Source: Candidatus Limnocylindrales bacterium (GTDB lineage: Bacteria > Chloroflexota > Limnocylindria > Limnocylindrales > CSP1-4). From it: 64,000 nucleotides of DNA. Position 1 is the first letter of the stretch. Each line of letters opens with the position of its first letter. Below the pieces are notes generated by a model that did no database searches, had not been told where the DNA came from, and saw only the letters and a program-made list of their open reading frames with translations. The position numbers were made by a program, and so were the translations under genes. Below, piece by piece: positions 24,026-53,993 of the stretch. The stretch covers positions 25,257-89,256 of the forward strand of contig DASXVG010000087.1 in assembly GCA_036504355.1 (NCBI GenBank), in the 5' to 3' direction.

Positions 24026-24244
24026 TTGGACTTCTTCCAGGGTCGCAGCCGCAGCCGCGTCGCCGTCGTCGTGACGGCAGACGGTCGCCGCGTGACCGTG
24101 CCCCTGCGCGACCTCGATCACCCGGACGTATCCCCCCTCGATCTTCTTCGCTCGCTCCTTGCCGGCCTCGAGAGCCTTCTTGGGCTTCTCATTACCGGCT
24201 CCCGGCGGGAGAACGGAGGGACGCGGAGGAACGAGCGCCACTGA
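24026..24244 (+). CDS. Candidate ilv-leu attenuator leader peptide (72 codons, TTG start with an AGGAG ribosome-binding site 9 nt upstream)
   Basis: The peptide reads ...RVAVVVTADGRRVTV...LDLLRSLLAGLESLLGLLIT... It has 8 Leu codons in 18 positions, 6 of them the rare CTT codon, plus a rare ATT Ile, in an otherwise GC3-rich genome. The stop falls 20 nt before a terminator hairpin. Confidence 0.45.
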   Translation: MDFFQGRSRSRVAVVVTADGRRVTVPLRDLDHPDVSPLDLLRSLLAGLESLLGLLITGSRRENGGTRRNERH

Positions 24245-24262
24245 GGCGCCCGCCACCGAAGA

Positions 24263-24297
24263 CCGAAGGGACCCTCGCCGGGTGGCGAGGGTCTTTG
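24263..24297 (+). terminator. Attenuator/terminator hairpin upstream of ilvB
   Basis: GACCCTCGCC-GGGT-GGCGAGGGTC forms a 10-bp perfect stem with a 4-nt loop, followed by TTTGCATG. Overlapping alternative hairpins lie upstream (CTCCCG..CGGGAG and GCGCC..GGCGC). Confidence 0.45.
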
Positions 24298-24354
24298 CAT
24301 GTCCGGGAGGTCGCGGGGCCGATCGGGCGGAGGGACACAGCGCGATGACGATGA

Positions 24355-27894
<3,540 letters not shown>

Positions 27895-27895
27895 C

Positions 27896-29539
27896 ATGAC
27901 CTTCGGGGCCATCACCCCCCGCTTCGGCGAGGGAGTAGCCGCCGGCAGGATCCGGATCTTCGACACCACCCTGCGCGACGGGGAGCAGGCGCCGGGCGCC
28001 GGCCTCACCGCCGCCGAGAAGCTGGAGGTCGCGCGACAGCTGGCGCGGCTCAAGGTGGACGTGATCGAGGCCGGCTTCCCGGCCGCCTCGCCCGGCGACT
28101 TCGAGGCGGTCCGCCGGATCGCCCAGGAGACCAAGGGCGGCATCGCGGTCGCGGCGCTCGCCCGGTGCCGTGACGGCGACCCCCAGCGCGCGGTCGAGGC
28201 GATCACCGTCGCCGAGCGCCCCCATCTCCACCTGTTCATCGCCACCTCGGACATCCACCTCAAGCACAAGCTGCGGATCGACCGTGACGAGGCGCGCCGC
28301 GAGGCCGTCAAGTGGGTGAGGTGGGCCCGCGAGACGCTCGGCCGCGACGCCGAGATCGAGTTCTCCGCCGAGGACGCCTCGCGCACGGAGGACGAGTTCC
28401 TGCTCGACGTCTACGAGGCGGTGACCGAGGCCGGCGCCTCGACCCTCAACATCCCGGACACGGTGGGCTACGCGATCCCCGCGGAGTTCGGCGCGCTCGT
28501 GGGCCGGGTCCGGGACCGCATCGGCGACAGCGCCGTGATCTCCGTCCACTGCCACAACGACCTGGGGCTCGCGACGGCGAACACGCTCGCCGCGGTCCAG
28601 GCCGGCGCCCGCCAGGTCGAGGTCACGATCAACGGCCTCGGCGAGCGGGCCGGCAACGCCTCCCTCGAGGAGGTCGTGATGGCGCTCCGGACGCGACCCG
28701 GCCAGTTCCCGGACCTGGCGGCCGGCGTCCAGACCGAGCAGCTGACCCCGGCCTCGCGACTCGTCAGCTACCTCACCGGGTTCGCGGTCCAGCCCAACAA
28801 GGCGATCGTCGGCTCCAACGCGTTCGCGCACGAGTCCGGGATCCACCAGGACGGCTATCTCAAGAACCCGCTGACCTACGAGATCATGACCCCGCAATCG
28901 GTGGGGCTCTCGGGGTCCACGCTGTCCATCGGCAAGCTGTCCGGCCGGCGCGGCCTCCAGGGCAAGCTCAAGGAGCTGGGCGTGGACACGGACGGCGAGC
29001 AGCTGGACGCGATCTATCGCGCCGCGATCGCCCTCGCCGATACGAAGAAGGAGGTCACGGACGCTGACCTGCTGGCGCTCGTCAACGAGCGCAAGAGCGA
29101 CGTCCCGCGGTCCGTGGAGCTCCTCGGCTGGAGCGTCAGCTCGGCGTCCGGCGGCCACTCGGTGGGCTCCGTCTCGCTCGTGGTCGCGGGCGAGGCGAAG
29201 GCCGCCAACCAGACCGGCAACGGCCCGGTCAACGCGCTGTTCAAGGCCGTGGACGAGGCCGTCCGCCCGGTGCTCCACTGGGCGCCCGTGCTGACCGAGT
29301 ACGAGATCAAGGCGGTGTCGGCGGGGGAGGACGCGCAGGGCCAGGTGCTCGTTCGGTGCCGTCGTTCGTCGGACGAAGGCCCGGGCGCGCTCGTCGTGAC
29401 CGGCCACGGCTTGAGCACCAACATCATCGAGGCCTCGATCGAGGCCTACCTCACGGCAACCAACAAGCTCCACGGCGCCGAGATCAACGGCATCGAGGTG
29501 GCGTTCGTGGGCCGGCGCACCGCCGAGGAGCTCCCGTGA
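27896..29539 (+). CDS. leuA: 2-isopropylmalate synthase (short bacterial form with a C-terminal LeuA_dimer domain)
   Basis: The sequence has [30 protein letters not shown] and a C-terminal [13 protein letters not shown]. Confidence 0.85.
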
Positions 29540-29558: not shown

Positions 29559-30755
29559 GTGAGCGCGGGAGATGCAAGCGGAGTTCGGTGGTCCGGGGCC
29601 GCGACTGGCCTCGCGGACCAGGTCTCGAGCGCCGGCGCCATCCCGACGACGTACCGGATCGCGCTGATCCCGGGCGACGGCGTGGGGCCGGAGGTCGTCG
29701 AGGCCACGGTGTCGGTCCTGGAGGCCGTGGGCCGGCGATTCGGCTTCGCCTTCGCGTGGGACCGCCTGGTCGTCGGCGGCGCCGGCATCGACGCGTACGG
29801 CGTCGCCTGCCGGCCCGAGGACGTTGAGGCGTGCCGCGACGCGGATGCCGTCCTCCTGGGCGCGGTCGGCGGCCCGAAGTGGGACAACCCGGACGCCGCC
29901 GTCCGGCCGGAGCAGGCCCTGTTCGCGCTGCGCGGCGGCCTCGGGCTGTTCGCCAACCTGCGCCCGATCACGGTCCGGCCCCAGCTCACCGGGGCGTCGC
30001 CGCTGCGGCCGGAGCTGCTCGTGGGCGTCGACTGCCTCATCCTGCGCGAGCTCACGAGCGGCCTCTACTTCGGCCGGCCGTCCGAGCAGCGCGACACGCC
30101 CGACGGGCGGGCCGCGATCGACACCCTGTGGTACACCGAGGGCGAGATCCGGCGGATCGTCACGCTTGCGTTCGAGCTCGCCCGCACCCGCCGGCGCAAG
30201 GTGACCCAGGTCGACAAGGCCAACGTCCTCGCGACGAGCCGCCTGTGGCGCAAGGTGACCGACGAGGTCCACGCCGGCTTCCCCGACGTGGAGCTCGAGC
30301 ACCGGCTCGTGGACTCCGCGGCGATGATGCTGGCGAAGTGGCCGGCGGGCTTCGACGTCCTCGTCACCGAGAACCTGTTCGGCGACATCCTGTCGGACGA
30401 GGCGGCGGTCATCGCCGGCTCCCTGGGCATGCTGCCGTCGGCGTCGATCGGGACGCGCCAGACGGCGCACGGCCGGCACGGCCTGTACGAGCCGATCCAC
30501 GGGTCGGCCCCGGACATCGCGGGTGCCGACCTCGCGAACCCGCTGGGGACCATCCTGTCGGCCGCGATGATGCTCCGCTGGAGCCTCGGCCGGCCCGACG
30601 CCGCGGAGGCCATCGAGGCCGCCGTGGACACCGCCCTCGACGAGGGCTACCGCACCAGGGACCTCATGCCGACGGACGCCACGGAGGCGGCCGCGTGCAC
30701 GCAGGTCGGCACGTCGGAGATGGCCCGCGTCATCGGGGACCGGATCGCGATTTGA
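29559..30755 (+). CDS. leuB: 3-isopropylmalate dehydrogenase
   Basis: The sequence has YRIALIPGDGVGPEVV...NLFGDILSDEAAVIAGSLGMLPSASIG. The N-terminal roughly 30 aa of the track ORF may not be translated, so the start is uncertain. Confidence 0.8.
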   Translation: MSAGDASGVRWSGAATGLADQVSSAGAIPTTYRIALIPGDGVGPEVVEATVSVLEAVGRRFGFAFAWDRLVVGGAGIDAYGVACRPEDVEACRDADAVLLGAVGGPKWDNPDAAVRPEQALFALRGGLGLFANLRPITVRPQLTGASPLRPELLVGVDCLILRELTSGLYFGRPSEQRDTPDGRAAIDTLWYTEGEIRRIVTLAFELARTRRRKVTQVDKANVLATSRLWRKVTDEVHAGFPDVELEHRLVDSAAMMLAKWPAGFDVLVTENLFGDILSDEAAVIAGSLGMLPSASIGTRQTAHGRHGLYEPIHGSAPDIAGADLANPLGTILSAAMMLRWSLGRPDAAEAIEAAVDTALDEGYRTRDLMPTDATEAAACTQVGTSEMARVIGDRIAI

Positions 30756-30831: not shown

Positions 30832-32498
<1,667 letters not shown>

Positions 32499-32502
<4 letters not shown>

Positions 32503-33038
32503 CCGACGTCCCGCGCACCGCCTCCGAGTCGATCCGGCTCGACCGCTGGACGGTGACGTCCGGGTCGAACGTCAACAGCCGGGCCGCGGTGGTGATCCGC
32601 GCCGCGGACCACGACTGGAAGGCGTCTGCCGAGGGCAACGGCGCGGTCGACGCGCTGTTCAAGGCGGTGGACACGGCGCTCGCGCCGATCGTCGGCGGCC
32701 GGCCACTCCTGCTCGGGTACGACGTCCACGCCCTCGCCGAGGGCCCCGACGCCGAGGGCCGCGTGACCGTCCGGATCGCGCCCCCGGTCGCCGCAGCGGG
32801 CGGACGGGCGGACGGCCGGTACACGGGCGAGGTCACGTCCCCGAACACGGTGGCGGCCTCGATCGAGGCGTACGTCCAGGCGCTGACGGCCATGCTCGCC
32901 GACGAGTCGTGGGCCGGCGCCGCCGAGGATGCCGGCGCGCAGCGGGTGCGTCGGGCGACCGGCGATCCCGCCGACGGCACGACCGAGTACGACCGCACGG
33001 CGGACCACTTCGACACCACCGAGTGGTTCAACCGCTAG
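32499..33038 (+). CDS. Standalone LeuA_dimer (IPMS allosteric/regulatory) domain protein
   Basis: The 179-aa protein carries EGNGAVDALFKAVDTAL...ASIEAYVQAL, which matches the C-terminal regulatory domain of LeuA/CimA and has no catalytic barrel. It is coupled to cimA by an ATGA overlap. Confidence 0.55.
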
Positions 33039-33880
33039 GCGGCGAGGGCCCCCAGGGCCCCGCCATCCAGATCGACGCGGACGCGTTCAACCGGTTCGAG
33101 GCGGCCGGGTGGGAGGCTCGCGCCGCGTCGTACGCGTTCCTGTCGCCGATCACCGGGCGCGTCATCGGGGCGCTCCTCGGGGCGGTCGGGGCGGTCGAGG
33201 ACACCCAGCTCCTCGACGTCGGGTCGGGCCCGGGCGACCTCGCCGCCGCGGCCGCCGAGCGGGGAGCAGACCCGGTGGGCATCGACGTCGCCCCATCGAT
33301 GGTCCGGAGGGCCGCGATGGCCCACCCGGGCATCCCGTTCAGGGTCGGGTCGTTCGAGGCGATCCCCGGCGGTGCGGGCTCGTTCGACGCGGTCGTCGGC
33401 AACTTCGTGTTCAACCACGTCGGGCGTCCCGGCGTCGCCCTCGCGGAGGCGTACCGGGTCCTGCGTGCCGGCGGCCGCGTTGCGATGTCGACGTGGGACG
33501 CTGCGCGCCACAACCGGATCCTCGGGCTCGTGCTCGACGCCATCGAGGCCGCCGAGGCGCCGCCGCCCCCTGGCCTGCCGCCCGGGCCCACGAACTTCCG
33601 CACCGACGCCGAGCTGCGGTCGCTGTTCGAGGCCGCCGGGTTCGCCGACGTCGGCGTGTCGCACCTCCACTACGAGGCGCGCATCCCCGACACCGACACC
33701 CTGTGGCACGGCGTCCTCGACTCGGCCGTGCGGATCCCGCCGCTCGTCACGGGCCAGGCGCCCGACGTCCAGGCACGGATCCGTGCCGAGTTCGACCGGT
33801 TGTGCGCGCCGCACGCCCGCGAGGACGGGATGCTCGCGATCCCCGTTGCGGTCCAGGTCACCCAGGGCCGCCGGCCATGA
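33023..33880 (+). CDS. Class I SAM-dependent methyltransferase
   Basis: The sequence LLDVGSGPGDLAAAAAERGADPVGIDVAPSMV...VVGNFVFNHV...GGRVAMSTW is a methyltransferase signature. The probable GTG start overlaps the stop of the preceding gene. This frame is the downstream part of track ORF 32240..33880. Confidence 0.6.
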   Translation: MVQPLGGEGPQGPAIQIDADAFNRFEAAGWEARAASYAFLSPITGRVIGALLGAVGAVEDTQLLDVGSGPGDLAAAAAERGADPVGIDVAPSMVRRAAMAHPGIPFRVGSFEAIPGGAGSFDAVVGNFVFNHVGRPGVALAEAYRVLRAGGRVAMSTWDAARHNRILGLVLDAIEAAEAPPPPGLPPGPTNFRTDAELRSLFEAAGFADVGVSHLHYEARIPDTDTLWHGVLDSAVRIPPLVTGQAPDVQARIRAEFDRLCAPHAREDGMLAIPVAVQVTQGRRP

Positions 33881-34746
33881 GCGACACGCCGATGCCGGTC
33901 GCCTACACGGGCGAGCCCGGTGCCTTCGCCGAGGAGGCGGCGCTGCGGTTCTTCGGGGCGCCGGAGACGCTGCCCCTGTCTTCGTTCCGGGAGGTGTTCG
34001 AAGCCGTGCGCGACGGGCGTGCTGCCGCGGGCGTCGTGCCGGTCGAGAGCAGCCTCCTGGGCACCATCCGGGAGAACGTGGACCTCCTGTGGGCCTTCGA
34101 CCTCCCGATCGTCGGCGAGGTCAGCGTCCCGGTCCGGCTCGCGCTGCTCGGGCTCCCCGGGGAGCGGCTGCATACCGTGGAGCGGGTCTACTCGATCACG
34201 GCGGCGCTGGCCCAGGCGGACGCGTTCCTGCGCTCGCGGCCGTGGACGATCCAGACGACGTACAACACGGCAGGCGCGGCCCGGATGGTCGCCGAGCGCG
34301 GAGAGCGTGGCTCGGCCGCGGTTGCGAGCGCGCGGGTCGCGCCGATCTACGGCCTCGAGGTCCTCGCCGACGACATCCAGACAGGATCGGACAACCGGAC
34401 CAGGTTCGCGGTCATCGCACGCCGCGACGACACGGCCCGGGTGCTGGAGCGGGCGCTGCCGGCGGCGATTGCGGGCGATCCCCGCACGACGCTCGTGTTC
34501 GCCGTCCGGAACGTGCCCGGGTCGCTGCACCGGTCGCTCGGCGCGTTCGCAAGCCGCGGCCTCAACCTCGTCCGGCTGGAGTCCCGGCCGTGGACCGAGC
34601 GAGGCGCGCGCTGGGAGTACCTGTTCTGGGTCGACCTCGACGCGGACCCGTCCGAGCCCGTGTGCGCCGAGGCGCTTGCCGCCCTCGCCCGCGAGACGGA
34701 GCTCGTCCGGATCCTCGGCACGTACCCCCGGGCCGCCGAGGACTGA
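33877..34746 (+). CDS. pheA: Prephenate dehydratase (PDT plus ACT domain)
   Basis: The sequence MSDTPMPVAYTGEPGAFAEEAA...TRF...ESRP with a C-terminal ACT domain identifies it. It overlaps the methyltransferase stop in an ATGA junction. Confidence 0.85.
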   Translation: MSDTPMPVAYTGEPGAFAEEAALRFFGAPETLPLSSFREVFEAVRDGRAAAGVVPVESSLLGTIRENVDLLWAFDLPIVGEVSVPVRLALLGLPGERLHTVERVYSITAALAQADAFLRSRPWTIQTTYNTAGAARMVAERGERGSAAVASARVAPIYGLEVLADDIQTGSDNRTRFAVIARRDDTARVLERALPAAIAGDPRTTLVFAVRNVPGSLHRSLGAFASRGLNLVRLESRPWTERGARWEYLFWVDLDADPSEPVCAEALAALARETELVRILGTYPRAAED

Positions 34747-34810: not shown

Positions 34811-36394
34811 TCAGAGGCGCGCGAACGCGTCCAGGATCACCTCGGGCCGGGTGCCGTTCGCCGACACGACGCGGATCGTGTGCGACCCGACGCTGGCGAA
34901 CCTGCGCTGGTAGACGACGACCCTGTCGCCCGGCGTGAACGTCGCGACGTCGACCGTCGCCCGGAGCGTCCCGTCGACGTAGACCTTGACGACGCCGAGC
35001 GACGGGTCCGCGGACATGATGACCGCGATCGCGCGCCCGGTGAACACGTAGCGGGCCCACTGCCCGTTGTCGTCCGACTGCTTCGCCGAGCCGCCGGAGA
35101 AGGCCGCCGACACGAGCGTCGTCCAGCCGCTGCTGAACGTCACGTTGGAGCTCGTCTGCTGCACGAGCCGCGGCGTCTGCAGCGGCCCCTTGACCCAGGC
35201 GCCGCGGTTGCCCGCCCAGTCGATCGCGCGGAGCCGGAACTGGAGCGTGCCGCTGGGCGACGCATACGCGTCGAGGGATCGCTTCTGGGTCGTCCCCAGC
35301 GACGTCCAGTGCAGGCCGCCGTCCGTGGTCTTCGCGACCTCGTACTTCCAGACACCCGCACCGCCGCCGTCCGTCCCCGTGGACCACGAGGTGCGGACCG
35401 GGAGCTTCGAGCCCAGGAGCGTCGACTTCGTGGCCAGGCCCGCGGCCGGCTTCCCATTGGCGGGCTTCGTCCGATCGATCGTCAGCGTGGCTGCCGCGGG
35501 AACGGGCGCGGCAGGGCCGCTCACCGGGCTCGTGTCGTCCGAGAGGACGCTGTGCGCCCTGAGCGTCAGCCCCAGCGTCCCATGCGAGCAGCCGCTCAGC
35601 GGCACGGTCCACGTGGTCCGCGAGCCGTCCGCGACCGGGGCGCCGATCGTGCAGCCCGTCGCGCTGCCGCTCTTGGCGAAGTCGCTCGCGGTCAGGCCGC
35701 TGACCGGCTTGTCGAACCGGACCTTGTAGCCGAAGGCGCTCGCGCGGGTCGGCGAGCTCGGCGCGACGACGCTCGCCCGCGGCGTTGAGCCCATGAGCGC
35801 GCCATCACCCTCGTAGCTGAGCATGAAGTCGACCGGCCCGAGGCTCGTCGCGTTCGTCCAGCAGGCGCCGACGACGCAGAAGAAGCCCGTCCCGTCCGGG
35901 TACTGGTCCGGGCCTGTCGGGCTGCTCGCGTGCCACGCGATGCCACTGTTCGTGCCGCGCAGCAGCACCACAGCGACGGTCTGGGAGGTGGTGAGCACGG
36001 CGGGCCGGTCGAAGGCGACGTCGACTGTCGTGGGTGTGCTCGGATCGGTCGACAGCGTGGTGGCGCTGAGCGTCTGGGCGGCGATCACGATGCCGGTGCT
36101 CGCCACCTGGTGGCCGGTGGGCGCGCCGCTCGAGGTGGACCGCACCTCGACCCGGTAGGTCCCGGTGTCGGTGCTCGCCCGGTTGAGCGTGAGGCCGACG
36201 TGGGTCAGCGCGCCGCCGGGCGCGACGAAGGTCTGGGCCATCCCGGGCCACGACCAGCGCGACTGGTCCTTGTCGTTGACGATCCCGGCGAATGCGGCCG
36301 CGCTGACGCTGCCCGGCAGCATCGCGAGCATCGTGGTGCCGGCGATCAGGCCCGCCAGCGCCCGGCGCCGGTGAAGACCGGTGGAAGTGGTCAC
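34811..36394 (-). CDS. Tat-signal secreted hypothetical protein (Ig/Fn3-like beta-rich)
   Basis: A twin-arginine motif RRRALAGLIAGTTMLAMLPGSVSAAA is followed by about 500 aa rich in Ser/Thr/Gly. I found no recognisable catalytic motif. Confidence 0.55.
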   Translation of the reverse strand: MTTSTGLHRRRALAGLIAGTTMLAMLPGSVSAAAFAGIVNDKDQSRWSWPGMAQTFVAPGGALTHVGLTLNRASTDTGTYRVEVRSTSSGAPTGHQVASTGIVIAAQTLSATTLSTDPSTPTTVDVAFDRPAVLTTSQTVAVVLLRGTNSGIAWHASSPTGPDQYPDGTGFFCVVGACWTNATSLGPVDFMLSYEGDGALMGSTPRASVVAPSSPTRASAFGYKVRFDKPVSGLTASDFAKSGSATGCTIGAPVADGSRTTWTVPLSGCSHGTLGLTLRAHSVLSDDTSPVSGPAAPVPAAATLTIDRTKPANGKPAAGLATKSTLLGSKLPVRTSWSTGTDGGGAGVWKYEVAKTTDGGLHWTSLGTTQKRSLDAYASPSGTLQFRLRAIDWAGNRGAWVKGPLQTPRLVQQTSSNVTFSSGWTTLVSAAFSGGSAKQSDDNGQWARYVFTGRAIAVIMSADPSLGVVKVYVDGTLRATVDVATFTPGDRVVVYQRRFASVGSHTIRVVSANGTRPEVILDAFARL

Positions 36395-36542: not shown

Positions 36543-36947
36543 TCAGTGCGAGACGACCTTGGCGAGCGTCTTCGCCTGGGCGATCCATCCCGACACCGTG
36601 GTCTCGGACGGGATCCGCCGGACGATGCTGGGTCGTGCCGCGACGAGCTCCTGGAACGTCGTCGCGAGATTGGCGGCGTTGCGCCGCGCCAGCTCCGGGG
36701 GGGAGTCCACGCCGGCGGCCTCGAGCAGGTCCGCGTACTCGGAGCCGACGCCATCGAGACGCATCAGGTCGGCATGGTTGACCCACTCGAGGAGCTGGGC
36801 CGCGCTGATGCCCGTCGCGCCGGCAAGCGATTCCCGCCCGGCGGCGGACGCGCCCCGCTCTAGGAGATCGTCGGTGGTGTTGACGCCGGCGACGTTGAGC
36901 TTGGCGGCGAACGCCGGCCCGATGCCCTCGATTTCGTCGATCTTCAT
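36543..36947 (-). CDS. DUF4332-domain protein
   Basis: The internal start is MKIDEIEGIGPAFAAKLNVAGVNTTDDLL (helix-hairpin-helix-like). The upstream part of the track ORF is probably not translated. Confidence 0.55.
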   Translation of the reverse strand: MKIDEIEGIGPAFAAKLNVAGVNTTDDLLERGASAAGRESLAGATGISAAQLLEWVNHADLMRLDGVGSEYADLLEAAGVDSPPELARRNAANLATTFQELVAARPSIVRRIPSETTVSGWIAQAKTLAKVVSH

Positions 36948-37093
36948 GGTGCTCCCGTGGCCGCGGGAAGCCCGGTCGTGGCGGGGCCGGTGATCCACTC
37001 CCGCAGACGATGCGATCATACGGGCCAGACCCCAATGCACAAGGGTCCGGAGGCACACGGGAGACAGCAGTGAACGACGCGTTCCGGAGCGAG

Positions 37094-38746
37094 ATGGCGG
37101 CCGGCTACGGCTTCGACGAGCCGGTGGTCGTGCTCGGCTCGCCGATCCTCGGAGACGAGGTCCTGCCGGAGGTCCGCGTCCAGGTGCCGCTCTCGCGGAT
37201 CAACCGCCACGGGCTCATCGCGGGCGCCACCGGCACCGGCAAGACGAAGACCCTCCAGCTGCTGGCCGGCCAGTTGAGCGCGCTCGGGGTGCCGGTGTTC
37301 GCCGTGGACGTCAAGGGCGACCTGTCGGGGGTCGGCGCACCCGGCGACCCAGCCAACCCGCCGGTCGCGGCACGCATCGAGTCCCTCAAGCTGACCTTCC
37401 AGGCCCAGGGCCACCCGGTCGAGGTCCTGTCCCTGTCGGGGACGCAGGGGGCGCACGTCCGCGCGTCGGTCTCGTCGTTCGGGCCGCTGCTGCTGGGCAA
37501 GGTGCTCGACCTCAACGACACCCAGACCTCGATCCTGTCGCTCGTGTTCCGGTACTGCGACGACGAGCACCTGCCGCTGCTCGATCTCGCGGACCTCCGG
37601 ACGACGCTCAAGTTCCTCGCGTCCGATGACGGCAAGGCGGCGCTCGACGAGCTCGGCGGGATCAGCTCCGCCAGCCTGGGCGTGATCCTGCGCGCGATCG
37701 TGACGATCGAGCAGGAAGGCGCCGGCGACTTCTTCGGCGAGCCGGAGTTCGATCCCGACGACCTCGTGCGCACGACCGCTGACGGCAAGGGCATCGTCAC
37801 CCTGCTCGAGGTCGCGGACGTCATGGACCGCCCGCGGCTGTACTCCACGTTCGTGCTGTGGATGCTCGCCCAGCTGTACGAGACGCTGCCCGAGGTGGGC
37901 GACATCCCGAAGCCCAAGCTGGCGTTCTTCTTCGACGAGGCGCACCTGCTGTTCCGGGATGCGTCGAAGGCACTGCTGGAGCAGATCGAGCGCACCGCGC
38001 GCCTCATCCGATCCAAGGGCGTGGGGGTCTACTTCGTGACCCAGGCGCCGACCGACGTCCCGTCGTCGGTGCTGTCGCAGCTCGGCAACCGCGTCCAGCA
38101 CGCGCTGCGTGCCTTCACGCCCGACGACGCAGACGCGCTGCGCAAGACCGCGCGAACGTTCCCGGTGACCGAGTTCTACGACGTGGAGCGCACGATCACC
38201 TCGCTCGGCATCGGCGAGGCGCTCGTGACGGTGCTCTCGCCCAAGGGCATCCCCACGCCGCTGGCGGCGACCCGCCTCGTGCCGCCCGACTCCAGGATGG
38301 CGCCGCTCACGCCGCAGGAGATCAGCGCGATCGTCGCCCAGTCCACGCTCGCCGCGCGCTACAACACGGCCGTCGACCCCGAGAGCGCGCACGAGATCAT
38401 CACCGCACGCCTCGCCAACGCGAAGGCCGCGGCGGCGACGGCGGCGAGCGACGCCGCGATCCGCGCGGGCGTGGATCCGACGACGGCCGATGGCCTGGAC
38501 ACGATGACGCCCGCCCAGCAGCAGCGGGAGATCGAGCGACGTGCGCGGGAGCTGGATGTCGCCCGCCGCGCTGCCGAGCGCGACCGCAAGGCCCAGGAGA
38601 AGGCCGCCCGTGACGCTGCGAAGCAGCGCGAGAAGACGCTCGAGACCGGGATCCGCACCGCGGGCAGGGTCGTCACGTCGCGTGCGGGGCAGTCGCTCCT
38701 GCGCGGGGTGTTCGACGTGTTCTTCGGCGGCGGCAAGCGCCGCTAG
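37094..38746 (+). CDS. HerA-like helicase/ATPase (DUF853 family, Rv2510c-like)
   Basis: Walker A reads GATGTGKTK and Walker B reads FFFDEAH. The C-terminal coiled-coil region is rich in Lys/Arg. The start (ATG 37094, GTG about 37067, or the track's 37010) is unresolved. Confidence 0.65.
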   Translation: MAAGYGFDEPVVVLGSPILGDEVLPEVRVQVPLSRINRHGLIAGATGTGKTKTLQLLAGQLSALGVPVFAVDVKGDLSGVGAPGDPANPPVAARIESLKLTFQAQGHPVEVLSLSGTQGAHVRASVSSFGPLLLGKVLDLNDTQTSILSLVFRYCDDEHLPLLDLADLRTTLKFLASDDGKAALDELGGISSASLGVILRAIVTIEQEGAGDFFGEPEFDPDDLVRTTADGKGIVTLLEVADVMDRPRLYSTFVLWMLAQLYETLPEVGDIPKPKLAFFFDEAHLLFRDASKALLEQIERTARLIRSKGVGVYFVTQAPTDVPSSVLSQLGNRVQHALRAFTPDDADALRKTARTFPVTEFYDVERTITSLGIGEALVTVLSPKGIPTPLAATRLVPPDSRMAPLTPQEISAIVAQSTLAARYNTAVDPESAHEIITARLANAKAAAATAASDAAIRAGVDPTTADGLDTMTPAQQQREIERRARELDVARRAAERDRKAQEKAARDAAKQREKTLETGIRTAGRVVTSRAGQSLLRGVFDVFFGGGKRR

Positions 38747-38772: not shown

Positions 38773-39714
38773 GTGAGGACAGCGGGCTGGCCCTCGGGCG
38801 GCAAGCGGCCGGTCGTCGGGTTCATCGGGCTCGGCCGGATGGGGTCACCGATGGCGGCCAACGTCGCGCGGGCAGGCTTCGAGCTCGTGGTGTTCGACGT
38901 CCGCGGTGAGGCGACCGAGCCGCTCGTGGCGCTCGGCGCACGGGTCGCAGAGAGCGCGCCCGGCCTGGCGGCGGCCGTCGACGTCCTCGTGACGATGCTC
39001 CCGGGCCCGCCGCAGGTCGAGGCGGTGATGCTGGGCATGAACGGCGCGTTCCAGGCGCTCCGCGAGCGGTCCGTCTGGGTGGACATGTCGACGTCCACGC
39101 CGGCGGCCGGCCGGATCGCGGCGGAGGATGGCGCCCCGCGCGGGGTCGGGATCGTCGACGCCCCGGTCGCGGGCATGGTCAAGGGCGCCACCGCGGGCAC
39201 GCTCCAGGTGTTCGCGGGCGGGGACGCCGGGGATGTGAAGCGCGTCCTGCCGGTCCTCCACGCGATGGGCGACCCCGAGCGCGTCGTGCACGTGGGTCCG
39301 CGCGGCGCGGGGTACGCGGTCAAGCTGTGTCTCAACCTGCTGTGGTTCATCCACGCCCACGCGTCCGCGGAGGTGCTCGTGCTGGGCGCCAAGGCCGGCG
39401 TGGAGGTCGGGACGCTGCGGCGAGCGCTCAGCGGCGGGCCGGCATCGTCCACCGTCCTCGAACGCGACATCGACGGGGTGTTCGAGGGCGACTACGACGA
39501 AAGCCTGACGCTCGACCTCGTGACCAAGGACCTCGGCCTGGCGGTGGACCTCGGCCGGGAGCTCGGGGTCCCGCTCGAGCTGTCCGCCCTCGTGGAGCAG
39601 CTCTACCGCCGGGCGCGGGCGCTCTACGGCGACCGGGCGGGCGCGCTGAGCACGGTGCGCATGGTCGAGGACGCCGCCGGGATCAAGCTGCGGCCGGGAA
39701 CCCCATCGCGCTGA
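38773..39714 (+). CDS. 3-hydroxyisobutyrate dehydrogenase family NAD-binding oxidoreductase
   Basis: A Rossmann motif VVGFIGLGRMGSPMAANV is followed by the 6-PGDH-like C-terminal domain. Confidence 0.7.
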   Translation: MRTAGWPSGGKRPVVGFIGLGRMGSPMAANVARAGFELVVFDVRGEATEPLVALGARVAESAPGLAAAVDVLVTMLPGPPQVEAVMLGMNGAFQALRERSVWVDMSTSTPAAGRIAAEDGAPRGVGIVDAPVAGMVKGATAGTLQVFAGGDAGDVKRVLPVLHAMGDPERVVHVGPRGAGYAVKLCLNLLWFIHAHASAEVLVLGAKAGVEVGTLRRALSGGPASSTVLERDIDGVFEGDYDESLTLDLVTKDLGLAVDLGRELGVPLELSALVEQLYRRARALYGDRAGALSTVRMVEDAAGIKLRPGTPSR

Positions 39715-39833
39715 CCGTTCGGCCCGGCGCGCCGTGCCGTCGAACCGGCACCCGAACCGGGTTCGGACGCTGACCTAGAATTGCTGCCGTGGCCATGCCA
39801 CCACCGAGTCGCAGTCGCACCCAGGAGCCACCG

Positions 39834-41279
39834 ATGGCGACCATCGCCGGCGTCAAGCCGCACCCGATCTACCTCGCCGGCACGTGGGTCGACTCGCCCG
39901 ACGTCCTCGAGGTCGAGAACCCCGCGCGCCCGGGCGAGCTCGCGGGGACCACGTACCTCGCGACCGAGGCCCAGTACGAGGAAGCGGTCGAGGCCGCGGT
40001 CCGGGCGTTCGACGTCACGCGCAAGCTGCCCGCCTACGAGCGCGGCCGGATCCTGCGCGAGGTCAGCGCCGGCATCAAGGCCCGCCGCGAGGAGCTGGGG
40101 GCGCTCATTGCGGCCGAAGCCGGCAAGCCGATCCGCGACGCCCTGACCGAGGTCGATCGCGCGGTCCTCACGTTCCGGCTCGGGGCGGAGGAGGCGGAGC
40201 GCGCCTACGGCGAGGTCATCCCGCTGGACCTCCTGCCGAGCTCGAAGGACCGGGTCGGGATCACCCGCCGCTTCCCGATCGGGCCCATCGCGGGCATCAG
40301 CCCGTTCAACTTTCCGTTGAACCTCGCCGCGCACAAGGTCGCTCCAGCCATCGCCTCGGGCAACCCGATCGTGCTCAAGCCACCGTCCAAGGATCCGCTG
40401 GTGATGCTCGCCGTCGCGGAGATCATCGACGCGGCGGGCGTCCCCGAGGGGATGGTCTCGATCCTGCCGATGAGCCGCGAGCTCGGCGACCGGATGGTCA
40501 GCGACGAGCGGTTCAAGCTGCTCACGTTCACGGGCTCGCCGTCCGTGGGCTGGCGGATGAAGGAACGCGCCGGCAAGAAGAAGGTCGTGCTCGAGCTGGG
40601 CGGGAACGCCGGCGTCATCGTGGACAGGTCCGCGGACCTCGACTGGGCGGTCAAGCGCGTGCTCGTCGGCGCCTTCGCCTACAGCGGCCAGGTGTGCATC
40701 AGCGTCCAGCGGATGTTCATCCACGAGGACGTGTGGGACGCGTTCATGGAGCGCTTCCTCGCCGGCGTGTCGGCCCTCAGGCTCGGCGACCCGGCAGACC
40801 CCACCACGGACATCGGGCCGATGGTCGACGCGAAGGCTGCCGCCCGGACCCAGGCCTGGGTCGACGAGGCTCGGGCGCTCGGCGGCACGGTGCTCGCGGG
40901 CGGCACCGCCGACGGCACGTTCTTTCCCCCCACCGTCATCACCGGCGTGCCCTTCAGCGCGCAGGTGTGCTCCAACGAGGCGTTCGCGCCGCTCGTCGTC
41001 GCGTTCCCGTTCCACGACCTCCCGGAGGCCATCGCCGCGGTCAACGACAGCTTCTTCGGGCTCCAGACCGGCGTGTTCACCGGCGATCTCGCGGCGGCTT
41101 GGCAGGCCTTCTCGGAGCTCGAGGTCGGTGGGGTCATCGTCAACGACGTCCCGACCTATCGGATCGACAACATGCCCTACGGCGGGGTCAAGGACTCGGG
41201 GCTCGGCCGGGAGGGCATCCGCTGGGCCATCGAGGACATGACCGAGATCCGGATCATGGTCCTCGCCTGGCCCCAGTGA
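39834..41279 (+). CDS. NAD(P)-dependent aldehyde dehydrogenase
   Basis: The sequence has FTGSPSVG, ELGGNAG and catalytic Cys in FAYSGQVCISVQR. The start is taken at MATIAGVKPH. Confidence 0.8.
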   Translation: MATIAGVKPHPIYLAGTWVDSPDVLEVENPARPGELAGTTYLATEAQYEEAVEAAVRAFDVTRKLPAYERGRILREVSAGIKARREELGALIAAEAGKPIRDALTEVDRAVLTFRLGAEEAERAYGEVIPLDLLPSSKDRVGITRRFPIGPIAGISPFNFPLNLAAHKVAPAIASGNPIVLKPPSKDPLVMLAVAEIIDAAGVPEGMVSILPMSRELGDRMVSDERFKLLTFTGSPSVGWRMKERAGKKKVVLELGGNAGVIVDRSADLDWAVKRVLVGAFAYSGQVCISVQRMFIHEDVWDAFMERFLAGVSALRLGDPADPTTDIGPMVDAKAAARTQAWVDEARALGGTVLAGGTADGTFFPPTVITGVPFSAQVCSNEAFAPLVVAFPFHDLPEAIAAVNDSFFGLQTGVFTGDLAAAWQAFSELEVGGVIVNDVPTYRIDNMPYGGVKDSGLGREGIRWAIEDMTEIRIMVLAWPQ

Positions 41280-42316
41280 GCCTCGCCACCGAGATCCAGG
41301 AGCAGCCCAGGGTCCTCGGCCGGATGCTGGAGCGCGCCCCCGAGATCGGCCGGATCGCCGCGGCCATCGCCACCCGCCAGATCGAGCACGTGGTGGTGGC
41401 GGCCCGAGGCACCTCCGACCACGCCGCGATCTACGCGCAGTACGCGTTCGGCATCCGGCTGGGGCTGCCCGTCGGGCTCACGACGCCGTCGGTCGTCTCC
41501 GTGTACGGCGCGGAGCCGAGATTCGGGCGGGCCCTCGTCATCGGCATCAGCCAGTCCGGCGCGTCTCCGGACATCATCGCCGTCCTTGGGGCGGCACGCC
41601 GCCAGGGGGCGCCGACGCTCGCGATCACGAACGATCCCCGCTCGCCGCTCGCGGATGCCGCGGAGATGGTCCTCGACCTCGGGGCGGGGCCCGAGCTCGC
41701 GGTCGCGGCGACCAAGACGTACACGGCCGAGCTGCTGGGCCTCGCGCTCCTGGCGGCCGCCATCCGGCGGCCGGACGATCCACTCGCCGACGACCCGGAC
41801 CTCGCGCTCGTGCCGGCGGCGGTCGGGACGACACTCCTCGCGAGTGCGCACGTCGCCGGCATCGCGCGCGAGGTCGCGGTGCACGACGCGTGTGTCGTGG
41901 TCGGCCGCGGCTACGAGTACGCGACCGCCCGCGAGTGGGCGCTCAAGCTCAAGGAGCTTGCCCACGTCCACGCCGATCCCTATTCCGCGGCCGACTTCCG
42001 CCACGGCCCGATCGCGCTCGTCGACGTCGACCTCCCGGTCCTGGCCGTCGCGCCGTCCGGCCGGGTCGCGCCCGACATGGAGGCGCTCCTGCGCAGGCTC
42101 CGCGACGACCTCGGCGCGCGCGTCGTTGTCGCCTCCGACCGCGCCGAACTGCGCGCGCTCGGGAGCTGGTCGATCGATCTGCCGGTGCTCCCGGAGCACC
42201 TGATGCCGATCGCGTCGATCGTCCTCGGCCAGCTGTACGCGATGCACGCGGCGGTGGCGCGGGGCCTCGATCCCGACCGGCCACGGACGATCGCCAAGGT
42301 GACCCGCACGACCTGA
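41276..42316 (+). CDS. Tandem-SIS-domain sugar-phosphate isomerase/aminotransferase-like protein (GlmS C-terminal/AgaS-like)
   Basis: The GTG start overlaps the ALDH stop. Motifs include IGISQSGASPD and VAATKTYTAEL. Confidence 0.65.
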   Translation: MSLATEIQEQPRVLGRMLERAPEIGRIAAAIATRQIEHVVVAARGTSDHAAIYAQYAFGIRLGLPVGLTTPSVVSVYGAEPRFGRALVIGISQSGASPDIIAVLGAARRQGAPTLAITNDPRSPLADAAEMVLDLGAGPELAVAATKTYTAELLGLALLAAAIRRPDDPLADDPDLALVPAAVGTTLLASAHVAGIAREVAVHDACVVVGRGYEYATAREWALKLKELAHVHADPYSAADFRHGPIALVDVDLPVLAVAPSGRVAPDMEALLRRLRDDLGARVVVASDRAELRALGSWSIDLPVLPEHLMPIASIVLGQLYAMHAAVARGLDPDRPRTIAKVTRTT

Positions 42317-42325
42317 GGCGGCGGC

Positions 42326-42898
42326 CTACCCGCCGGCGACGATCGCCTTCGCCAGCGTCAGCGCCGCCGCCTTCCCGTCGACGCCTGCGGCGAGCACCTG
42401 GAGCTTGTACATCTGCTCGTTGACGACGAACAGCAGGACGTCCCCGGGCCCGAACGAGGCCGGCACGCCGAGGGATGTCTCCTCCGTGAGCGCGGCGCCC
42501 TGGAACTGCAGCAGCTCGTCATAGGCCGCCTGGCCGTTCGTCTCCGCCTCCAGGTCGACCGTGCCCGCGACCGGGAGCGCGTCGCTCACCACGGTCGTCC
42601 ACAGGCAGCCGCCCAGGGACGCGGTGTCGGGCGTCCCGTACAGCTGCTCGGCGGTCGCGACCTTCGCGCCCGCGACGGCCTCGATGGCGGCGCTCGAGAT
42701 GCGGTCACAGCCAACCACCGCGACGCCCGCGCCATCCGTGGCGGCGTCACCGGCGGCGGTGGACGATTCGGCAGTGGCGGTGGCACCCGCGGCATCGGTG
42801 GCGGCGGCGGGGGCCGTCGTGGCGGCCGATCCGCCGCATCCCGTTGCGGCGAGGGCGAGGACGGCGAGCAACGCGAACAGACTGGGACGACTGGTCAA
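42326..42898 (-). CDS. Lipoprotein (hypothetical)
   Basis: A signal peptide with lipobox LALAATGC is followed by an Ala/Thr-rich linker and then a small domain. Confidence 0.5.
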   Translation of the reverse strand: MTSRPSLFALLAVLALAATGCGGSAATTAPAAATDAAGATATAESSTAAGDAATDGAGVAVVGCDRISSAAIEAVAGAKVATAEQLYGTPDTASLGGCLWTTVVSDALPVAGTVDLEAETNGQAAYDELLQFQGAALTEETSLGVPASFGPGDVLLFVVNEQMYKLQVLAAGVDGKAAALTLAKAIVAGG

Positions 42899-43038
42899 GA
42901 GGACTCCCTTGGGGTGACGGTGGTGGAAGTCCTTCGGGACTGCCGGCTGCCTACGGTACGTGGTCGGCGCGGCGACCGTTCGTTCCCCCCGTCGCGACCG
43001 GGCACGCCGCCCTCGGCACGAGGCCCCACACTGCCGCG

Positions 43039-44211
43039 ATGGATCTCACGCTGACCCCCGGGCAGGCCGAGCTCCGCGGCAGGGCTCGCGCCTACGTCGT
43101 CGACGTCCTCCAGCCCCTCGAGGGCGTGTTCGAGCAGCACCATGCGCTGCCCCAGGACACGATCCGCGAGCTCAAGCGAGCGGCGATCGAGGCGCGCCTC
43201 CACGGCGGCAGCCTCCCCATCGCGGCGGGCGGGCAGGGCTGGTCGATGCTGGAGCAGGTCCTCGTCCACGAGCAGCTGGGCCAGGTCACGGGCGGCCTGT
43301 GGTCGTTCATCCCGGGCGCGTACAACGCGCTCGTCCACTGCACGCCGGAGCAGCGCCGCCGCTACCTGGCTCCGAGCCTGCGCGGGGAGCGGACCGGGAG
43401 CTACGCGATCACCGAGGCGGGCCAGGGCTCGGACGCGCGGACGCTCACGGCGACGGCGGTCCGCGACGCCGCTACGGGCGAGTACGTCCTCAACGGCGAG
43501 AAGTGGTTCGTCACCGGGCCCTCGGACACGGACTTCATGATCTTCCACTGCCACCTGCTCGAAGGCGACGAGCGGCTGCCCACGCTGTTCCTCGTCGACT
43601 ACGACGCCCCCGGCGTCGCGCAGACTGCGGACCCCGACTACACCCACACGTTCGCGGACCGCCACCCGCAGTTCGTGCTCAGCGACGTCCGCGTCCCGGC
43701 GGACGCGATGCTCGGCGCGAAGGGCGAGGCCGACGCCATGACCAACGAGTGGTTCGTCGAGGAGCGGCTCCACATCGGTGCGCGGTGCTCGGGCGCGATG
43801 GAGCGGCTGCTCACGCTGGCGGTCGCGTGGGCGACGGAGCGGGTCCAGTTCGACGAGCGGATCTACGACTTCCAGGGCGTGAGCTTCCCGCTCGCGGACT
43901 CGGCCGCGGATGCCTCCGCGGCACGCCTGCTCACCCGCGAGGCCGCCGTGCTCATGGACGCGGGCGCGAACCCCAAGGTCGTCCACGCCAAGGCCAGCGT
44001 CGCGAAGCTGTTCGCGTCCGAGGCCGCGTGGCGCTGCGCGGACCGCGTCGTCCAGGTGTTCGGCGGCCGCGGCTACATGCGCGAGTTTCCCGCCGAGCGA
44101 TACCTGCGCGAGCTCCGCGTCGACCGGATCTGGGAGGGGACCTCGGAGATCCAGCGGCTCGTCATCGCGCGGGCGCTCGAGAAGCGCGGCGTCGACGCGG
44201 TCGTCGGCTAG
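43039..44211 (+). CDS. Acyl-CoA dehydrogenase
   Basis: The start is MDLTLTPGQAELRG. ACAD motifs include YAITEAGQGSDA and QVFGGRGYMREFPAERYLRE. Confidence 0.8.
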   Translation: MDLTLTPGQAELRGRARAYVVDVLQPLEGVFEQHHALPQDTIRELKRAAIEARLHGGSLPIAAGGQGWSMLEQVLVHEQLGQVTGGLWSFIPGAYNALVHCTPEQRRRYLAPSLRGERTGSYAITEAGQGSDARTLTATAVRDAATGEYVLNGEKWFVTGPSDTDFMIFHCHLLEGDERLPTLFLVDYDAPGVAQTADPDYTHTFADRHPQFVLSDVRVPADAMLGAKGEADAMTNEWFVEERLHIGARCSGAMERLLTLAVAWATERVQFDERIYDFQGVSFPLADSAADASAARLLTREAAVLMDAGANPKVVHAKASVAKLFASEAAWRCADRVVQVFGGRGYMREFPAERYLRELRVDRIWEGTSEIQRLVIARALEKRGVDAVVG

Positions 44212-46457: not shown

Positions 46458-47400
46458 GGGGTTGCGCCGGCGCCTCGCCAGGTCGTGGCGCTCCCTGGGG
46501 CGACGCGAACCCGTTGAAGCCGTCCGTCGGCAAGATTTTGACGATCGTGGGCGAGTAGGCGACCGGATCCACCGACATCGACCTCACGACCGTCGACGGC
46601 ACCGCGATCCGCAGCGAGGGCAAACCCGCGTGGGCGGGTAGTTGGAAGGTCGTCGGCAAGGCGCACCCGGGCTGGGGACAGTGGAAGGTCGACAAGCAGG
46701 CCGCGAGGGCCGCCGCCGGGCATGGAGGCCGCCCTGGGCAGGCCCCGGGTCCCCCGAGCGGTCGCCCGACGACTGATCGGCAAGCGTCCAGGCCGCAACC
46801 GCGGTGTCACTTTGCCGACACTTGCGCCCAACCGACCACGAGCGTGCATTAAGGATATTGACCTATTCGATCTGCGGAGCCACACTCCGGCTCCGCACGA
46901 CGTGACGACGGGGGTCCGGCGTCTGTGGAGGCGCTGGTCGGACCAATCGGGGAACCAGGTTCCGACACGAGCGACAGGTGCGAATTCAGGGCCGTCGCAT
47001 GCGGGTGGGAACAACGTTTGGACGCCATACGCCAATGGTCGGCGCGTGGCCCGCTGTCCCCGCGTGCTGCCCACGTTCCCATCCCATGGCGGTCCCAGCG
47101 ACCGGACGTGGGTCCTCCGTGCCCTGAACACGGGGGACCTGCGCCTACTCCTTACGTAGGCGTGCTGCCAGCACGCTCGCCGGCGCGGCATTCGCGCCCC
47201 GGACTCATGGCGGCACCACCCGCCGCCACCGTCAACGCAGTTCGGACGTAGGAACCACAGGAGGGATCGATAGATCAGAGCGCTGCAGCCCAACCGGTCG
47301 TGAACGGGGAAGCACACCGGTTCGCCAGGGACCTGTGTGAACAGGCCGAGTCCTTCTTCCGGGAACAAGGATCGACAGAACAGGATCCAAACGAGAGGGA

Positions 47401-53228: not shown

Positions 53229-53993
53229 ATGACCGCCCTCATCCCGCCGCTCCGCATCCGCGTCCGCCTGTTCGCCATGCAGCGCGAGACCGCGGGGCTG
53301 CGCGAGCTCCGCCTCGAGGTGCCGCTCGGGTCCACGGTCGACGACGCGTGGAACGCGGTGGTGCGCGAGATCCCGGCACTCGCGCCGGGCCGTCCCTCGC
53401 TCCGGTTCGCCGTCAACGGCGAGTACGCGGACGAGGACCAGCCGCTGGCCGACGGCGACGAGATCGCGTGCATCCCGCCCGTCTCGGGCGGGGCGGACGC
53501 GAAGCGGATCCTGCGGATCGAGCCCGATCCGCTGCCGCCCGATCTCGCGACAACCCTGGCAGGCGAGCTCGCCACGGACGAGGACGGGGGCGTCGTGGCG
53601 TTCGTGGGCCGGACGCGCGTCACGCCCGGGACGCCCGCGCCGGGCCAGGAGGCGGAGGCCGCCCGCCACGCCGGCCGGGTCGTGGACGAGCTCGAGTACG
53701 AGGCGTTCGAGCCGATGGCGCTCACGGTCCTGGGGCAGATCGCGGACGAGATCGAGGCGCGCTTCGGTGTCGCTCGCGTGGCGATCGTCCACCGCTCCGG
53801 ACGGGTGCCGCTCGGCGACGCGTCGATCGTGGTGGTGGCGGTGGCGCCGCACCGGGATGCGGCGTTCGCCGCGGCGCGCTACGCGATCGACGAGACGAAG
53901 GCGCGGGCGCCGATCTGGAAGGCCGAGCGCTTCGAGGACGGCGTCGTGTGGATCGGCGACGTCGCGCGGACGGGGCCCGACTCCGCGGGCTGA
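53229..53993 (+). CDS. Molybdopterin synthase MoaD-MoaE fusion (MoaX-like)
   Basis: The N-terminal half is a ThiS/MoaD fold ending PPVSGG (IRVRLFAMQRETAG...VNGEYADEDQPLADGDEIACIPPVSGG). The C-terminal half is MoaE (VAIVHRSGRVPLGDASIVVVAVAPHRDAAFAAARYAIDETKARAPIWK). Confidence 0.7.
   Translation: MTALIPPLRIRVRLFAMQRETAGLRELRLEVPLGSTVDDAWNAVVREIPALAPGRPSLRFAVNGEYADEDQPLADGDEIACIPPVSGGADAKRILRIEPDPLPPDLATTLAGELATDEDGGVVAFVGRTRVTPGTPAPGQEAEAARHAGRVVDELEYEAFEPMALTVLGQIADEIEARFGVARVAIVHRSGRVPLGDASIVVVAVAPHRDAAFAAARYAIDETKARAPIWKAERFEDGVVWIGDVARTGPDSAG

Follow-up and report, generated by a model that had tools for sequence, protein, structure and literature searches.

A free-standing LeuA-type regulatory-domain protein, a candidate detachable sensor subunit, encoded in the ilv-leu-cimA-pheA operon of Limnocylindria-like Chloroflexota

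Introduction

The regulatory (R) domain of 2-isopropylmalate synthase (LeuA; PF08502; M. tuberculosis structures 1SR9 and 3FIG) is covalently joined to the catalytic TIM barrel via two accessory subdomains. The leucine route to which LeuA belongs and the citramalate-isoleucine route initiated by citramalate synthase (CimA) have LeuCD and LeuB in common. How enzymes of the LeuA/CimA family pass the signal to their distant catalytic barrel is debated, and the evidence comes from covalently linked domains (PMC9860122). The regulatory domain of Leptospira CimA (3F6G, 3F6H) and the CimA 'LA domain' isoleucine biosensor show that an excised domain of this kind can remain stable and bind its amino acid; the LA domain, which is of LeuA type, binds isoleucine specifically after its removal from the enzyme (PMC13381585). 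These excised domains are laboratory truncations.

Small regulatory proteins encoded by genes of their own are known from other families. IlvN/IlvH is a separate, translationally coupled amino-acid-binding subunit that exerts feedback in trans on acetolactate synthase, a partner without a built-in regulatory domain. Stand-alone RAM- and ACT-domain proteins and the plant 'microproteins' each consist of a single sensor or dimerisation domain that was freed from a multidomain ancestor and binds relatives or partners. A dissociable sensor subunit is not known for the LeuA/CimA enzyme family, and a full-text literature search found stand-alone LeuA_dimer proteins described in no paper, neither as such nor under their NCBI name.

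Here we describe a gene, referred to as X in the rest of the paper, whose product is a candidate for such a sensor. The product of X shares its fold and signature motifs with the LeuA R domain, its closest sequence relative, but it lacks the two accessory subdomains and carries instead a linker and a conserved C-terminal tail, both absent from LeuA. Unlike the CimA truncations, X is a natural gene, of LeuA type, and has an extra tail. IlvN/IlvH serves as our working model, although its fold (ACT plus ALS_ss_C) is unrelated to that of X and, whereas its partner has no regulatory domain, both CimA and LeuA have one. The likeness of X to the RAM- and ACT-domain proteins and to the microproteins is conceptual only, as their folds and partners differ from those of X.

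Results

Gene X is translationally linked to cimA and encodes a LeuA_dimer domain only

Gene X lies in the 64-kb window (the window being the whole stretch of DNA that was analysed), directly downstream of cimA in an operon of branched-chain amino acid genes. The genes of the operon and the signals at the cimA/X junction are:

24159-26249, + strand: ilvB, ORF from 24159 with a likely start at 24501 (Pfam, NCBIfam)
26246-26845, + strand: ilvN, small acetolactate synthase subunit (Pfam, NCBIfam; ACT plus ALS_ss_C)
26842-27894, + strand: ilvC (Pfam, NCBIfam)
27896-29539, + strand: leuA, 2-isopropylmalate synthase with its own LeuA_dimer domain (NF002086, 647 bits versus 532)
29559-30755, + strand: leuB (Pfam, NCBIfam)
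30832-32502, + strand: cimA, citramalate synthase composed of HMGL-like, HCS_D2 and LeuA_dimer (TIGR00977, 629 bits versus 450)
32488-32492, + strand: Shine-Dalgarno sequence GGAGG, 6 nt before the ATG of X and within the last cimA codons (sequence reading)
32499-32502, + strand: ATGA overlap between the ATG of X (32499-32501) and the TGA of cimA (32500-32502), predicted to couple their translation
32499-33038, + strand: gene X, free-standing LeuA-type regulatory-domain protein of 179 aa (ORF, GC3 of 0.96, PF08502, homologues)
33023-33880, + strand: class I SAM-dependent methyltransferase, whose GTG start overlaps the 3' end of X by 16 nt (Methyltransf_11/25)
33877-34746, + strand: pheA, prephenate dehydratase, with an ATGA overlap with the methyltransferase gene (PDT plus ACT)

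An earlier note on this DNA had described a 179-aa ORF at 32499-33038 that overlaps the cimA stop codon through ATGA. Our reading of the sequence bore this out, and both peptides quoted there, EGNGAVDALFKAVD and ASIEAYVQAL, were recovered in the translation of X. At about 72% GC, the window is rich in long chance ORFs on all six frames. The codon-position GC of X (0.72/0.57/0.96) follows the pattern of the flanking genes, with a clean switch of the frame plot at each end of the gene; X is therefore not a chance ORF of a 72% GC genome. The CimA C-termini PGG and TGR, which are conserved across loci, would fit a ribosome-binding site embedded in the end of cimA. The operon is tightly packed, with further overlaps between ilvB and ilvN, ilvN and ilvC, and the methyltransferase gene and pheA. 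The opposite strand carries leuC and leuD, some 23 kb upstream of X. Scanned for Rfam families and for tRNAs, the 64-kb window gave no match to either, and the Rfam scan found no riboswitch, T-box or leader RNA for the operon.

Against Pfam, X matched PF08502 (LeuA_dimer) and no other family (E 1.8e-21, 76.8 bits for a cutoff of 24.9), the match spanning residues 7-131 and model positions 17-129 of 131; neither HMGL-like (PF00682) nor HCS_D2 (PF22617) gave a match in X. Matches to synthase models were limited to the C-terminal 120 model positions and all remained under the respective cutoffs (58.9 of 532 bits for NF002086, 61.9 of 729 for NF002087 and 15.5 of 450 for TIGR00977). X is thus a member of the PF08502 domain family and is neither an isopropylmalate synthase nor a citramalate synthase. 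The domain-only nature of the protein, without a TIM barrel, had been proposed in the earlier note along with a search against the PF08502 HMM, which turned out clearly significant; that leuA and cimA each keep a copy of the domain likewise holds, both being full-length synthases by HMM.

Some assignments within the operon call for comment. In the ilvB ORF, about 115 codons (24159-24500) precede the first TPP-domain residue. Translation probably begins at the ATG at 24501, leaving a leader of about 0.5 kb without any Rfam match. The methyltransferase is not assigned to a particular family, its best NCBIfam match being far under the cutoff, and pheA scored 217 bits with NF008865, slightly under the cutoff of 219.

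X combines an effector-type domain with a conserved C-terminal tail

Three segments were delimited in the X protein:

32517-32891, + strand: LeuA_dimer domain, residues 7-131, doubled beta-beta-beta-alpha (Pfam, AF2 model, Foldseek)
32904-32981, + strand: variable linker, residues 136-161, a helix followed by a segment modelled as disordered (alignment, pLDDT, dN/dS of 0.61)
32982-33035, + strand: conserved C-terminal tail, residues 162-179, TEYDRTADHFDTTEWFNR, a proposed docking peptide (alignment)

The alignment of the family resolves a variable N-terminus (residues 1-11), the domain (12-135), a variable and often basic linker, and a near-invariant tail. The AF2 model of X has a mean pLDDT of 82, exceeding 90 in the core, and forms a doubled beta-beta-beta-alpha sandwich (strands 13-21/26-35/38-47, helix 49-65, strands 70-78/87-94/108-114, helix 117-134) followed by an extra helix at 141-153, while residues 155-174 are unstructured with a pLDDT below 50. 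When this model was compared with the PDB by Foldseek, all matches at E≤0.001 were regulatory domains, either of M. tuberculosis LeuA (3FIG, 1SR9, 3HPS, 3HPZ) or of Leptospira CimA (3F6G, 3F6H), with E values from 4e-8 to 8e-7; the remaining matches had query-normalised TM-scores of about 0.3 or lower. By sequence, no solved structure was found with either the X profile (E≤0.01) or the single sequence (E≤10).

We compared X with the three loop signatures of the family, GxGP[VI]xA, GxDAxGxV and S/T-x-[ND]..AS, which we take to be the lining of the effector site. X keeps effector-type loops in the form of GNGAVDAL (with Pro replaced by Ala), Y74, GPDAEGRV and SPNTVAAS, and across the X family the first loop reads GNG[A/P]V[D/N]AL. 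Residues G46, G48, V50, A52, Y74 and S121 of X are common to LeuA and CimA of the operon and to E. coli LeuA. In addition, G87 of X aligns with G462 of E. coli LeuA, presumably the site of a leucine-insensitive mutation.

The tail follows the near-invariant consensus [AT]E[FYL]D[DE].A..[IH]DTT[EDAS]WF[NE][RHQL]-COOH, in which E163, D165, D172, T174, W176, F177 and N178 are invariant or almost so in the alignment. Conservation of the tail is just as high in the 53 loci that have no overlapping methyltransferase gene, so the overlap does not explain its conservation. The motif was absent from the C-termini of other proteins in the window and in about 1 Mb of related DNA. Its disorder in the model of the X monomer is what would be expected of a docking peptide.

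X derives from the regulatory domain of LeuA

BLASTP aligned X with residues 401-525 of the LeuA encoded in the operon at 38% identity (E 8e-20) and with the CimA of the operon over 41 residues only (E 0.004). The best NCBIfam matches of X were also LeuA models (E 4e-17, compared to 0.004 for TIGR00977). Averaged over 44 genomes, identity to the LeuA regulatory domain was 37.4% within the same genome and 37.5% between genomes, compared to 27.7% for the CimA regulatory domain; identity to the LeuA proteins of E. coli, Paracoccus and Methylobacterium was 30-35%. By these comparisons the domain of X is of LeuA type and not of CimA type. Its equal identity to LeuA within and between genomes indicates that X separated from the LeuA regulatory domain as a paralogue long ago, before these lineages diversified. 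Gene conversion between X and leuA, considered as a cause of the co-evolution signal reported below, was ruled out by the same figures (37.4% within genomes versus 37.5% between them).

X is conserved in sequence and position across a lineage of Chloroflexota

A search of 5.8 billion proteins for homologues of X yielded 1773 matches, the best 120 of which were all proteins of 148-196 aa with PF08502 only and 64-95% identity. The family as a whole consists of domain-only proteins of 170-195 aa. In their sources, these homologues are named 'hypothetical protein', '2-isopropylmalate synthase' or, at NCBI, 'alpha-isopropylmalate synthase regulatory domain-containing protein'; the JGI label '2-isopropylmalate synthase' is an over-annotation. 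A profile search of 1.84 billion cluster representatives gave 36 matches at E≤1e-30, many of the listed ones being short fragments. When one genome per species was scanned, relatives of X were found in up to 276 genomes; nearly all of the best 80 were MAGs of Chloroflexota, Chloroflexia or Candidatus Limnocylindrales, and the six labelled otherwise are probably binning noise. On this distribution, the arrangement is a trait of the Limnocylindria-like Chloroflexota as a whole lineage.

The survey of synteny in related genomes advocated by the earlier note gave a clear answer: X occupies a fixed position in 80/80 fetched loci, in the order ilvC-leuA-leuB-cimA-X-(methyltransferase)-pheA, with pheA downstream in nearly all of them and a methyltransferase gene between X and pheA in 27/80. 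The cimA/X junction is a 4-nt overlap in 51 of 79 loci and a gap of 2-6 nt in 23, the other 5 being frameshifted assemblies. The ORF of X was intact in 76 of 81 sequences, the remainder being assembly artefacts. Nei-Gojobori estimates from 76 sequences put dN/dS at 0.29 in the domain, 0.61 in the linker and 0.41 in the tail, values that are rough because the extreme GC3 has probably compressed dS. The ratio obtained for the domain shows it to be under purifying selection.

In many of the long-read MAG contigs (L020, L026, L034, L040, L066, L069, L088 and L089), frameshifts break leuA, leuB and cimA into pieces, and the split genes give rise to spurious stand-alone LeuA_dimer proteins and to false fusions in the protein databases. 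Apparent X-PheA, CimA-X and X-methyltransferase fusions (P0121, P0128, P0142, P0153, P0225, P0237 and P0238) were rejected as out-of-frame translations from noisy assemblies, and the P0253/P0184 group, which we considered as another stand-alone LeuA_dimer family, consists of fragments of frameshift-broken leuA genes. Two further proteins from the profile search, P0189 and P0223 (153 and 179 aa), join an X-family N-terminal half to a C-terminal half from the CimA regulatory domain, including RRRDERHFTT, at GNGPVxAL; they are probably chimeras of metagenome assembly but could be real recombinants.

A smaller sister subfamily (P0182 and P0271-P0283) consists of domain-only proteins of 172-178 aa that are 32-38% identical to X and have lost the G of the GxDAxG loop. 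These proteins end in ...[ML]x[AIML][YF]N[SHQRG]-COOH; the aromatic-Asn C-terminus is thus common to X and its sister subfamily and is therefore the oldest part of the tail. Their genes were found in the contexts leuB-cimA-X-pheA (L081), cimA-ilvE-X (L088), cimA-ilvE-X-pheA (L090) and ilvE-X-dehydrogenase (L092), indicating that X keeps to the branched-chain operon and that adjacency to cimA and adjacency to pheA are each non-absolute. Tails of the sister subfamily (..HDERFTEMFNH) bear a faint resemblance to a C-terminal extension of CimA, ELRRRDERHFTT.

Position and co-evolution point to different candidate partners

The CimA extension is located as follows:

32422-32457, + strand: CimA C-terminal extension ELRRRDERHFTT, residues 531-542, past the end of the TIGR00977 model (conservation in loci)

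This extension is near-invariant in 73 loci and present in the sister-subfamily locus L081, and it is missing from four outgroups (Streptomyces, Nonomuraea, Azospirillum and Monoglobus). The extension is basic, whereas the tail of X is acidic. Its synonymous codons vary freely, for which reason an RNA-level cause of its conservation was rejected. Gene order, the coupled start and this lineage-specific basic tail favour CimA as the putative partner of X. However, overlaps run through the whole operon, so that the cimA/X overlap is not specific evidence for a complex with CimA. The sister subfamily also counts against CimA, as ilvE can lie there between cimA and X together with a CimA that lacks the tail, L090 being a locus that has X and a CimA without the extension.

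We carried out mirror-tree and partial Mantel analyses of six operon proteins in 44 genomes, with 15 pairs and the other four proteins controlled for in each. The distances of X correlated best with those of LeuA (r 0.87), and the X-LeuA pair came top of the 15 pairs (partial r 0.66, z 7.9), compared to −0.08 for CimA-X and −0.18 for PheA-X. The X-LeuA signal was the strongest pairing for both the catalytic and the regulatory part of LeuA, and it held on rank transformation and on subsampling (5-95% range 0.50-0.77). Physical linkage does not account for it, as leuA is separated from X by leuB and cimA. The signal nevertheless falls to 0.28 within the closest clade, and an unrelated pair, leuB-pheA, reached a partial r of 0.58, so that the co-evolution of distance matrices is only a hint that LeuA may be the partner. 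Position and co-evolution thus single out different candidates, CimA and LeuA, respectively. PheA is a third candidate, with synteny as its sole support. In some bacteria, leucine or methionine activates prephenate dehydratase, so that a cross-pathway link between X and PheA is conceivable.

Discussion

Of the readings considered here, the best supported is that X is a functional protein that serves as a dissociable, amino-acid-sensing regulatory subunit by docking on an enzyme of its own operon; we put it forward as quite possible while stopping short of calling it probable. X was built from an ancient copy of LeuA's leucine-binding regulatory domain, to which a flexible linker and a conserved C-terminal peptide, the proposed anchor, were added. 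The protein would form dimers through its doubled beta-beta-beta-alpha fold, in the way seen in crystals of the isolated CimA regulatory domain, and the pockets at the dimer interface may bind leucine or another branched-chain amino acid. A free regulatory domain would need a tether, which the tail of X could provide: its aromatic WF(N/E)x-COOH end would dock on a dimeric enzyme of the same operon. Docked in this manner, X would constitute an additional, detachable feedback input for the enzyme, comparable to IlvN on acetolactate synthase. That X acts in trans, an idea already raised in the earlier note, fits all of the findings. A consideration against our proposal is that LeuA and CimA have intact regulatory domains of their own, so that the site of action for a third domain is not obvious. 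In a more specific form, X would be a leucine-type sensor and the first case, in the LeuA/CimA (DRE-TIM Claisen-condensing) family, of an allosteric subunit that can dissociate; its WF anchor would dock on CimA, LeuA or PheA and link feedback on the leucine, isoleucine and possibly phenylalanine branches in a protein-level 'metabolic interlock' throughout a class of abundant, uncultured soil Chloroflexota. We consider this extended version doubtful.

The earlier note had offered as an alternative that X is a decaying duplicate or pseudogene fragment of leuA or cimA, without function. X is indeed a partial copy of the 3' domain of a neighbouring gene, and it evolves faster than leuA and cimA (mean distance 0.43 versus 0.17-0.18). 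Yet an intact ORF of similar length is found in hundreds of genomes down to 57% identity, with a sister subfamily at about 35%, and its position is fixed, its coupled start is preceded by a Shine-Dalgarno sequence, the dN/dS of its domain is 0.29 and its tail motif is invariant. No remnant of a catalytic domain precedes X, cimA being intact to its stop, and no overlapping gene in another frame covers the domain of X. Family-wide conservation, fixed synteny and purifying selection refute decay, which we regard as hardly tenable. Nor can X be the 3' remnant of a frameshifted third leuA paralogue, as the note had also envisaged: intact cimA fills all of the 1671 nt upstream of X, leaving no room for one. 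What stands of that interpretation is the domain-only protein, the ATGA coupling and the separate copies of the domain in leuA and cimA; the decaying duplicate falls away, and the LeuA-type origin, the roughly 45 residues past the domain with the conserved motif at their end, the conserved tail of the adjacent CimA and the lineage-wide occurrence had been overlooked. A programmed -1 frameshift at ATGA, by which X would be made only as part of a CimA-X fusion with two regulatory domains, is very improbable. The frame of X is indeed -1 with respect to that of cimA, and their overlap is a conserved one, but X has its own GGAGG and ATG, the canonical slippery heptamer X_XXY_YYZ was not seen in the bases ahead of the cimA stop, the two genes are 2-6 nt apart in 23 loci, and the long 'fusions' in databases are frameshift-ridden ORFs from noisy assemblies.

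The alternatives that grant X a function differ in the partner. X could be a 'microprotein'-type competitor, a dimerisation domain that takes the regulatory domain of LeuA as its partner and so changes or blocks the feedback control of that enzyme. Its derivation from LeuA and the fact that its co-evolution signal is strongest with LeuA would agree with such a role; however, the regulatory domains of the LeuA homodimer are already paired in one complex (PMC9860122), a free copy with 37% identity would have to compete against their very high local concentration, and the conserved tail would be left unexplained, which together make it unlikely. It is rather unlikely that X senses amino acids for a non-enzyme partner, either an Lrp-type regulator, in the manner of stand-alone RAM-domain proteins, or a nucleic acid contacted by its basic linker, and thereby controls expression of the operon. 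Many X members carry a basic RKRxR linker, the operon showed neither a riboswitch nor a T-box or leader RNA, and the tail of X resembles a generic docking peptide, all of which would suit this explanation; against it, none of the loci has a regulator gene linked to X, and the weak Foldseek matches to dsRNA-binding domains are noise (TM-scores 0.2-0.3, rmsd >14 A). As a split-off regulatory subunit, X might also serve an enzyme of the LeuA family that has no regulatory domain itself and whose gene lies at another place in the genome, such as a homocitrate-synthase-like protein or a short IPMS/CimA paralogue. X would then not act on the enzymes of the operon at all, and we consider this reading distinctly unlikely. 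A tail-anchored domain would best suit a catalytic partner without a regulatory domain, and both synthases of the operon have one. Nevertheless, no further HMGL-like gene was found within the 64-kb window or the 12-kb loci, and X remains in the ilv-leu-cimA-pheA operon in both subfamilies.

Should X be the docking subunit that we propose, it would represent a new route by which feedback can be added to, or cross-wired between, the leucine and citramalate-isoleucine routes, in the Limnocylindria, which are common yet uncultured soil Chloroflexota. A separate, tethered sensor would allow binding, docking and signal transmission to be dissected individually. As a natural amino-acid-binding module of 130 residues, X would also be a candidate for biosensor design, like the CimA domain (PMC13381585). 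If X has no partner, the finding reduces to an uncharacterised family of small ligand-binding proteins.

Other features of the window

A gene convergent with pheA (34811-36394, − strand) encodes a protein of 527 aa that has no Pfam domain and whose N-terminus resembles a signal peptide. At 36543-38746, a gene for a DUF4332/HHH protein is divergent from one for a HerA-like ATPase, a pair that also adjoins the ilv-leu-cimA-X-pheA operon in a second genome (L082, 10356-12577). A valine-catabolism-like cluster with genes for 3-hydroxyisobutyrate dehydrogenase, aldehyde dehydrogenase and acyl-CoA dehydrogenase is located just downstream of the operon (38773-44211). An ORF of 1010 aa (47341-50373, + strand) has no Pfam match and an unusual codon-position GC of 0.53/0.59/0.91; it contains several antisense ORFs with high GC3, and its coding strand is ambiguous. 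Finally, MoaD(ThiS) and MoaE of molybdopterin synthase are fused in a single ORF at 53229-53993.
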